Source: Escherichia coli
GTDB taxonomy: Bacteria; Pseudomonadota; Gammaproteobacteria; Enterobacterales; Enterobacteriaceae
Length of the DNA stretch: 926 nt
Assembly (NCBI RefSeq): GCF_003334335.1
Contig: NZ_QOWQ01000138.1
Strand: one strand, 5' to 3'
In this document: piece after piece, positions 43-86 of the stretch
Numbering within the stretch: the first letter of the stretch is position 1
How the letters are laid out: the number at the start of each line of letters is the position of its first letter
Notes under the pieces: model-generated
Database searches by the model: none
What the model was told of the DNA's origin: nothing
What the model saw: the letters and a program-made list of their open reading frames with translations, nothing else
Program-made: the position numbers and the translations under genes

Positions 43-71
43 CGGGGGCGAAATGCCCCCGTGTCTTTTTT
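43..71 (+). terminator. Intrinsic-terminator-like element: 7-bp all-GC stem (43..49 CGGGGGC / 55..61 GCCCCCG), 5-nt loop (gaaat), followed by tgtc and a T6 run (66..71)
   Basis: Perfect inverted repeat read directly from the sequence, then a T-rich tract (7 of the 10 nt after the stem are T). The T-run starts 4 nt after the stem rather than immediately, so it may be a partial terminator or an mRNA-stabilising 3' hairpin rather than a strong terminator. Confidence 0.5.
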
Positions 72-75
72 CACA

Positions 76-80
76 GGGGG
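76..80 (+). promoter_or_regulatory. Putative Shine-Dalgarno (GGGGG) for the FI-like gene
   Basis: G-rich purine run ending 6 nt upstream of ATG 87. It is a weak match to the AGGAGG consensus. Confidence 0.45.
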
Positions 81-86
81 CTGGAT

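Follow-up and report, generated by a model that had tools for sequence, protein, structure and literature searches.

The 52-nt spacer between the major capsid gene E and the DNA packaging gene FI (positions 35..86) very likely carries two ordinary, independent signals: a terminator-type stem-loop (42..62, followed by a U-run at 66..71) and the Shine–Dalgarno (SD) sequence of FI (76..80). The stem-loop, called hairpin A here, is a robust, conserved, terminator-shaped structure directly 3' of the major capsid gene, and the whole of the hairpin and repeat feature considered below lies within the spacer.

Gene context of the E–FI spacer

The window, by which we mean the entire 926-nt stretch of DNA analysed, is 100% identical to positions 32863-33788 of Escherichia phage PhiR5_1 (PV340545.1), a lambdoid phage whose head module is of the phage-21 type. 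It is 85-94% identical to other phage-21-type lambdoid phages (the PhiR12 phages, phage 21, ev017, 4A7 and others), and its first 200 nt (1..200) were matched in 1,629 of 5,426 complete E. coli genomes, with 2,427 copies in total. The features are as follows.

1..34, plus strand: 3' end of the major capsid protein gene E, with stop codon TAA at 32..34 (the annotated E coding sequence ends at locus position 3034, which is window position 34)
35..78, plus strand: predicted outer helix C (35..41 with 71..74 and 76..78), which extends hairpin A and covers three SD Gs; rejected as a conserved feature
42..62, plus strand: hairpin A, with 5' arm 42..49 (GCGGGGGC), loop 50..54 (GAAAT) and 3' arm 55..62 (GCCCCCGT)
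55..81, plus strand: potential helix B (55..63 paired to 72..81 around a bulged A75, with 64..71 as the loop), feasible physically, though nothing points to its use
63..71, plus strand: terminator tail GTCTTTTTT, with a T-run at 66..71; its length differs by one T among relatives
76..81, plus strand: FI Shine–Dalgarno sequence, GGGGG at 76..80 and C81, the second GGGGGC copy
87..455, plus strand: FI (DNA packaging protein) coding sequence, 122 aa, ATG at 87 (open reading frame list and PV340545.1 annotation)
448..801: FII coding sequence (PV340545.1 annotation)
817: start of the Z coding sequence; the window ends within Z

On both strands, 35..86 holds short spurious open reading frames only. 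Further downstream, FI and FII overlap in ATGCGTGA, where FII is annotated to start at ATG 448 and FI stops at TGA 453..455, a layout typical of translational coupling; a mechanical open reading frame list puts the FII start at GTG 433 instead. Within the FII coding region, the terminator scan also returned a weak terminator-like pattern at 724-747, GTTTCTCCGG-ATGA-CGGGGGAAGC followed by TGTTATCT; having 4 G-C pairs only and a poor T-run, it is probably due to chance.

A stem-loop after the major capsid gene

Direct reading of the sequence confirms every motif listed in an earlier note on this DNA: GGGGGC occurs exactly at 44..49 and 76..81, and GCCCCC at 55..60. That note also described an upstream hairpin with a 5-nt loop; the loop is as described, while the stem is really 8 bp long (42..49 with 55..62). 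It is made up of G42.U62, C43-G61 and then G44..C49 with G55..C60, giving 7 G-C pairs and 1 G.U pair. Hairpin A begins 7 nt after the E stop codon, folds with -17.3 kcal/mol in isolation, and is the best terminator-scan match both in the window and in the surrounding 6.9-kb locus.

The sequence features of an intrinsic terminator are all present, namely a GC-rich stem of about 5-14 bp, a loop of 3-8 nt and a 3' U-tract, and the tail GUCUUUUUU (63..71) has the at least 5 T in 8 positions on which the scan selects. The tract is imperfect, in that the three stem-proximal bases are GUC, with six U following at 66..71; given those first three bases, the terminator may be a weak one. On the reverse strand no T-run follows the hairpin, by reading of the sequence. 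Scanned against Rfam with a permissive cut-off, the window gave chance-level matches only and no family fits; in this region the highest-scoring match was the ylbH leader, with 14 bits where the gathering score is 50. In the literature searched we found no paper describing the E–FI hairpin of lambda or phage 21, and no transcript ends mapped to this element.

The FI Shine–Dalgarno sequence

On current evidence, the second copy of GGGGGC serves as the SD of FI, as the earlier note had it. The phage 21 record (M81255) labels the corresponding AGGGG as a putative ribosome-binding site for ORF1 (= FI). The predicted duplex of GGGGG with the 16S 3' end has an energy of -9.4 kcal/mol, compared with -10.3 for GGAGG, and GGGGG (76..80) sits 6 nt before ATG 87, inside the 5-10 nt expected of an SD. 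With hairpin A formed, the SD is predicted to be about 30-50% unpaired across our models, and so accessible though not naked.

In the same state, the U-run with its following base (UUUUUUC, 66-72) is predicted to pair with purine-rich FI codons (GAAGAAA, 98-104), which would loop the SD and AUG loosely. This pairing is weak, context-dependent and probably incidental.

Pairing between the hairpin and the Shine–Dalgarno sequence

The C-tract of hairpin A can also pair with the SD, as the earlier note had pointed out, although the helix was mis-sized there: helix B has 9 bp and an 8-nt loop, not 6 bp and a 15-nt loop. The additional pairs are G61-C74, U62-A73 and G63-C72, formed across the bulged A75, and they bring the isolated helix from -13.2 kcal/mol for the bare 6-bp version to -16.8 kcal/mol. 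The note rightly took A and B to be mutually exclusive, the C-tract strand being common to both, and its expectation that the compact upstream hairpin is favoured agrees with our predictions. Pair probabilities were computed in nine contexts with both arms present, from 35..90 to -150..250; P(A) was 0.93-0.99 throughout and P(B) at most 0.05.

The two folds are nearly isoenergetic when isolated (-17.3 vs -16.8 kcal/mol) and separate in context, where the ensemble ddG(B-A) ranges from +0.3 to +6.5 kcal/mol. Its values in seven contexts were +3.0, +3.2, +6.5, +3.8, +3.4, +0.3 and +4.3 kcal/mol, always in favour of A. The near tie (+0.3 kcal/mol) was seen in one context only, 35..130, the usual margin being 3-4 kcal/mol; given this value and the near-equal isolated energies, thermodynamics alone leaves room for some B. 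In addition, hairpin A is transcribed ahead of the 3' partner of B.

Taking away the 5' arm reverses the outcome. For an RNA starting at 50, P(B) rose to 0.995 with the SD 0.1% unpaired. When positions up to 46 or beyond were blocked, B formed with P=0.99, whereas blocking up to 41 or 43 left A in place, also with P=0.99. In the models, B takes over only in these states, with the 5' arm missing or unavailable, and the SD is then fully paired, as the claim that B would bury the FI SD supposes.

Toeprint and ribosome-helicase geometry suggests that a ribosome terminating on E, with UAA (32..34) in the A site, covers or unwinds the message to about 41-43. As the flip needs a block to at least 46, normal termination on E is not expected to change the fold, and we regard the terminating ribosome as an unlikely trigger for B.

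How much of the complementarity calls for explanation depends on what is held fixed. Shuffling 63..86 produced a stretch of 6 nt or more complementary to the 3' arm in 1.2% of trials, and random 24-mers with the base composition of the window had one in 3.7%; 0.5% of shuffles of the downstream 24 nt gave a B-type fold of the observed stability (unconditional p=0.005). When GGGGG and the U-run were held fixed and only the flanks shuffled, 29% folded as well (p=0.29). Thus the complementarity between SD and C-tract is what one would expect as a by-product of a G5 SD lying downstream of a terminator arm that contains C5.

Variation among phage-21-type relatives

Scanning IMG/VR with FI as the anchor yielded 80 loci, of which 79 had a usable spacer, and a hairpin-anchored scan was added to reach 74 distinct 500-nt contexts. 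Hairpin A is exact in 73 of the 79 FI-anchored loci; the six variants have either a 3'-arm C-to-T change that keeps G.U pairs (GCCTCC, GCTCCC) or a C-run shortened by 1 nt. Diversity is near zero over 20 nt comprising the 7 pre-hairpin spacer bases, the 5' arm and the loop, and the variable part of the spacer is the segment from SD to ATG. Third-codon-position diversity in E is 0.17 over the last 300 nt and 0.055 over the last 60 nt; with so little divergence at the end of E, conservation of the hairpin within the family is modest evidence of selection only.

The SD copy is far less constant. Among the 74 contexts it reads GGGGGC in 29, GGAGGC in 21, GGGGGA in 11 and GGGAGC in eight, and the five others have AGAGGC, AGAGGG, GGGGA or GGGGGGG. 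These are purine-for-purine changes which keep the SD character (-7.4 to -10.3 kcal/mol) and leave A unchanged at -16.8 kcal/mol, while cutting B from -16.8 to -13.5, -10.6 or -5.9 kcal/mol, that is, by 3-11 kcal/mol; for the GGAGGC and GGGAGC variants P(B) is 0.0000. No compensating change in 55..60 accompanies the SD variants in any of the 74 contexts. Nor did we find a covariation signal for B in the reverse direction, as the C-to-T variants of the C-tract co-occur with GGGGGC or GGGGGA and not with A-containing SDs, and G.U pairing preserves both helices, A as well as B, with GCCTCC and GCTCCC. Judged by these substitutions, the second copy is evolving as a ribosome site and not as a partner of the C-tract.

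These patterns bear directly on the central proposal of the earlier note, that the choice of fold could set FI translation. In such a translational switch the C-tract, 55..60 (or to 63), would toggle between A, with the SD free, and B, with the SD buried, and a signal that takes away or occupies the 5' arm would lower FI translation; candidate signals are a ribosome that moves past the E stop or stalls downstream of it, cleavage by an endonuclease within or upstream of the hairpin, and temperature. The idea gains something from the exclusive and, in isolation, nearly isoenergetic folds, from the near-complete shift to B (P=0.99, SD fully paired) when positions up to 46 or beyond are unavailable, and from the rarity of B potential among other lineages, together with the unconditional p of 0.005. 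Nevertheless we consider it very unlikely. With both arms present P(B) stays at or below 0.05, ddG mostly lies 3-4 kcal/mol toward A, and A is transcribed first; the terminating-ribosome model leaves A at P=0.99; the complementarity is expected given a G5 SD (p=0.29); the exact second copy is lost in 45 of the 74 contexts without compensation; and the arrangement is absent elsewhere, a GC-rich Methylorubrum locus excepted.

The proposal is accordingly unsupported by the comparison that it invited. The note had named homologous leaders lacking the duplicated GGGGGC as evidence against it, and such leaders were found, both in those 45 contexts and in other lineages, which do not have the arm duplication; it had also suggested looking for covariation at 44..49, 55..60 and 76..81 in homologous phages, and no linked changes were seen in the 74 contexts. 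Neither in these contexts nor in the other lineages are both pairings conserved or covarying, and no trigger that selects the fold emerged, either from the terminating-ribosome model, in which A remains at P=0.99, or as an Rfam family. Sequence comparison lends no support to an A/B switch.

A narrower role for helix B is conceivable in those phage-21-type phages that keep GGGGGC, where it could be a fail-safe that silences FI on processed or aberrant RNA; we hold this to be most improbable. Cleavage in or just upstream of A, or a ribosome invading the 5' arm, would free the C-tract to clamp the FI SD. If this were true, FI output would depend on an intact E–FI message.

In many of the IMG/VR loci, the sequence hardly differs from the window over the end of E and the entire spacer, yet the FI protein is just 57-59% identical. 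There seems to be a mosaic recombination joint at or just inside the FI start, beside the variable SD-to-ATG segment.

An outer helix between the E stop and the Shine–Dalgarno sequence

The minimum-free-energy (MFE) fold of 35..100, a check that had been asked for earlier, consists of hairpin A together with helix C (-22.0 kcal/mol for A+C vs -17.3 for A alone). This invites another reading, one of translational coupling, in which UCCGUGA (35..41) pairs with 71..78 (UCAC-A-GGG) and partly masks the SD until the terminating E ribosome melts the helix and so licenses FI. Beyond the lower energy of A+C and the presence of C in the MFE fold of 35..100, it can draw on the MFE folds of N15-type phages, Gifsy-1, Cedecea and Hafnia, in which post-stop pyrimidines pair with the SD in a similar way. 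With more flanking sequence, however, the probability of helix C drops to 0.002-0.04. It has no advantage over shuffles of the pre-hairpin segment (p=0.13 in the window; Fisher p=0.51 over 21 lineages), lambda-type spacers, which have 2-5 nt before the hairpin, cannot form it, and the natural variant T39G breaks it. Coupling by this helix is hence a highly doubtful explanation. As a conserved mask of the SD, helix C was rejected, its probability varying from 0.002 to 0.72 with context and being no better than in shuffles.

Conservation of the post-capsid stem-loop in other head modules

We compared the spacer with the corresponding region in phages lambda, YDC107_1, N15, phi80, Gifsy-1, Aeromonas PhAER-5, Hafnia phage Enc34, Chi-like iEPS5 and Vibrio K279, and in prophages of species-representative genomes, including Providencia, Pluralibacter, Phytobacter, Kluyvera, Citrobacter, Leclercia, Trabulsiella, Klebsiella, Dryocola, Buttiauxella, Cedecea, Erwinia, Hafnia, an Aeromonadaceae MAG and Methylorubrum, for about 20 species in all. 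Nearly all of these lineages have the same order of stop codon, GC-rich hairpin, usually a U-rich tail, SD and start codon. The stems themselves are unrelated between the phage-21, lambda/N15, Gifsy-1, Providencia, Aeromonas, Hafnia, Cedecea and Chi-like types, as illustrated by lambda (ATGGCCC-TTCG-GGGCCAT), Gifsy-1 (AGGCCTG-ATT-CAGGCCT), Providencia (CGGCGGG-GAAA-CCCGCCG) and the Aeromonadaceae MAG (CATGCCCC-TGAAT-GGGGCATG). All 16 of 16 sequence-distinct spacers fold better than their dinucleotide shuffles (mean z = -2.7; the window spacer has z = -2.0, p = 0.04), and in the alignable lambda/N15 group one stem pair has changed from U-A to C-G in three sequences. In the post-capsid stem-loops of E-family head modules it is structure, rather than sequence, that is conserved.

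It has to be asked whether hairpin and repeat might be a pure coincidence, neutral and with no role in transcription or RNA stability. The low divergence near the end of E, which makes conservation there weak evidence within the family, is in keeping with this; against it stand a stable hairpin at this place in every one of the 16 sequence-distinct lineages, whose stems are unrelated (mean z = -2.7), the compensatory change in the lambda/N15 group, and the U-rich tail in most lineages. We therefore judge neutrality to be unlikely by a wide measure.

What the other lineages do not share is the repeat: no copy of a hairpin arm occurs in the SD of any other lineage examined. Without the 5' arm, what is left of the RNA folds with -0.5 to -7.9 kcal/mol in those lineages vs -16.8 in the window; only the very GC-rich Methylorubrum spacer departs from this, its B potential being comparable to that of the window. 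The tail varies too, as Chi-like and Enc34-like spacers have the hairpin without a U-tail, from which the shared role may be one in RNA stability or processing rather than in termination.

Two contigs came up in unexpected hosts during this comparison. A Collinsella MAG contig carries an E. coli-type, phage-21-like E gene (94% identical), and a contig of 'Chryseobacterium sp. 18061' has a prophage spacer nearly identical to that of Cedecea; in both cases these similarities suggest that the source assemblies were contaminated or mis-binned.

Comparison with known elements

The hairpin of PhiR5_1 is unannotated, but an element of its kind is already annotated at the homologous junction of N15. 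There, a stem_loop feature at 7053..7073 (NC_001901) lies between gene 8 (major capsid) and gene 9 (the FI homologue) and is labelled 'putative rho-indep. transcription terminator', so that its function too is putative. The N15 element is likewise a GC-rich stem of 7-8 bp with a 4-5 nt loop and a pyrimidine- or U-rich tail, followed by an SD; it differs in the stem sequence (GTGGCCC/GGGCCAC vs GCGGGGGC/GCCCCCGT in the window), and its 3' arm is not complementary to its SD. N15 resembles PhiR5_1 also in having a second stem-loop after the decoration gene, which is annotated in N15. In PhiR5_1, the D–E spacer (locus 1956-1977, PV340545.1 about 31818-31839) contains a terminator-like hairpin, TCAGGCCA-CCGCGT-TGGCCTGA followed by CTGATTTCTG. 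With hairpins in both the D–E and the E–FI spacers, the genes for the two abundant head proteins each have one downstream.

In lambda, a stem-loop between E and FI (NC_001416, about 7166..7183) occupies the same place in a series of stop codon, hairpin, T-rich stretch, SD (GGAGG) and ATG, and its stem is kept, with one compensatory pair, across lambda/N15-type prophages. Unlike hairpin A it is capped by a UUCG tetraloop, begins just 2 nt downstream of the stop codon and is followed by an interrupted U-tract, and the SD holds no arm copy. The lambda record has no annotation for it.

The annotation of phi80 (NC_021190, about 7196-7234) deserves a comment of its own. The annotated GTG start of the FI homologue lies inside the post-capsid hairpin (GTGGCCC-TGTC-GGGCCAC), and 36 nt further on, an ATG with GGAG ahead of it corresponds to the start in N15; the annotated start is probably too early.

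Among general classes of element, hairpin A resembles intrinsic terminators and intercistronic stabilizing stem-loops, with which it shares a GC-rich hairpin and U-run on the sense strand 3' of a highly expressed gene. In a late operon under Q antitermination most polymerases are expected to read through such a site. Given this read-through, the effective role, unlike that of an intrinsic terminator, may be protection of RNA 3' ends rather than termination. To SD-sequestering switches (attenuator-style hairpins, RNA thermometers, riboswitch platforms) the likeness is that 55..63 has two partners, one of which is the SD. The differences are that the sequestering helix is neither conserved nor covarying, that no trigger or Rfam match was found, and that the fold with the SD free is the dominant one.

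Role and significance of the E–FI spacer

On the preferred reading of two independent signals, hairpin A would form first during transcription and dominate, and the SD would not be held by the C-tract. By analogy with lambdoid late operons and with intercistronic stem-loops in polycistronic mRNAs, hairpin A could act as a leaky transcription stop, as a barrier guarding RNA 3' ends, or as both. Polymerase modified by the late antiterminator Q would largely read through it. Either effect would raise the amount or lifetime of the D and E message relative to that of the downstream head-completion and tail genes.

The significance of the repeat itself goes little beyond annotation, an eye-catching duplication being the overlap of two routine signals. 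A by-product of the analysis is that a stem-loop right after the major capsid gene is conserved across very different E-family head modules, most records of which carry no annotation for it. Should the hairpin govern how much capsid message there is relative to the message downstream, it would be among the factors, and a simple one, that shape virion-protein stoichiometry in lambdoid phages.
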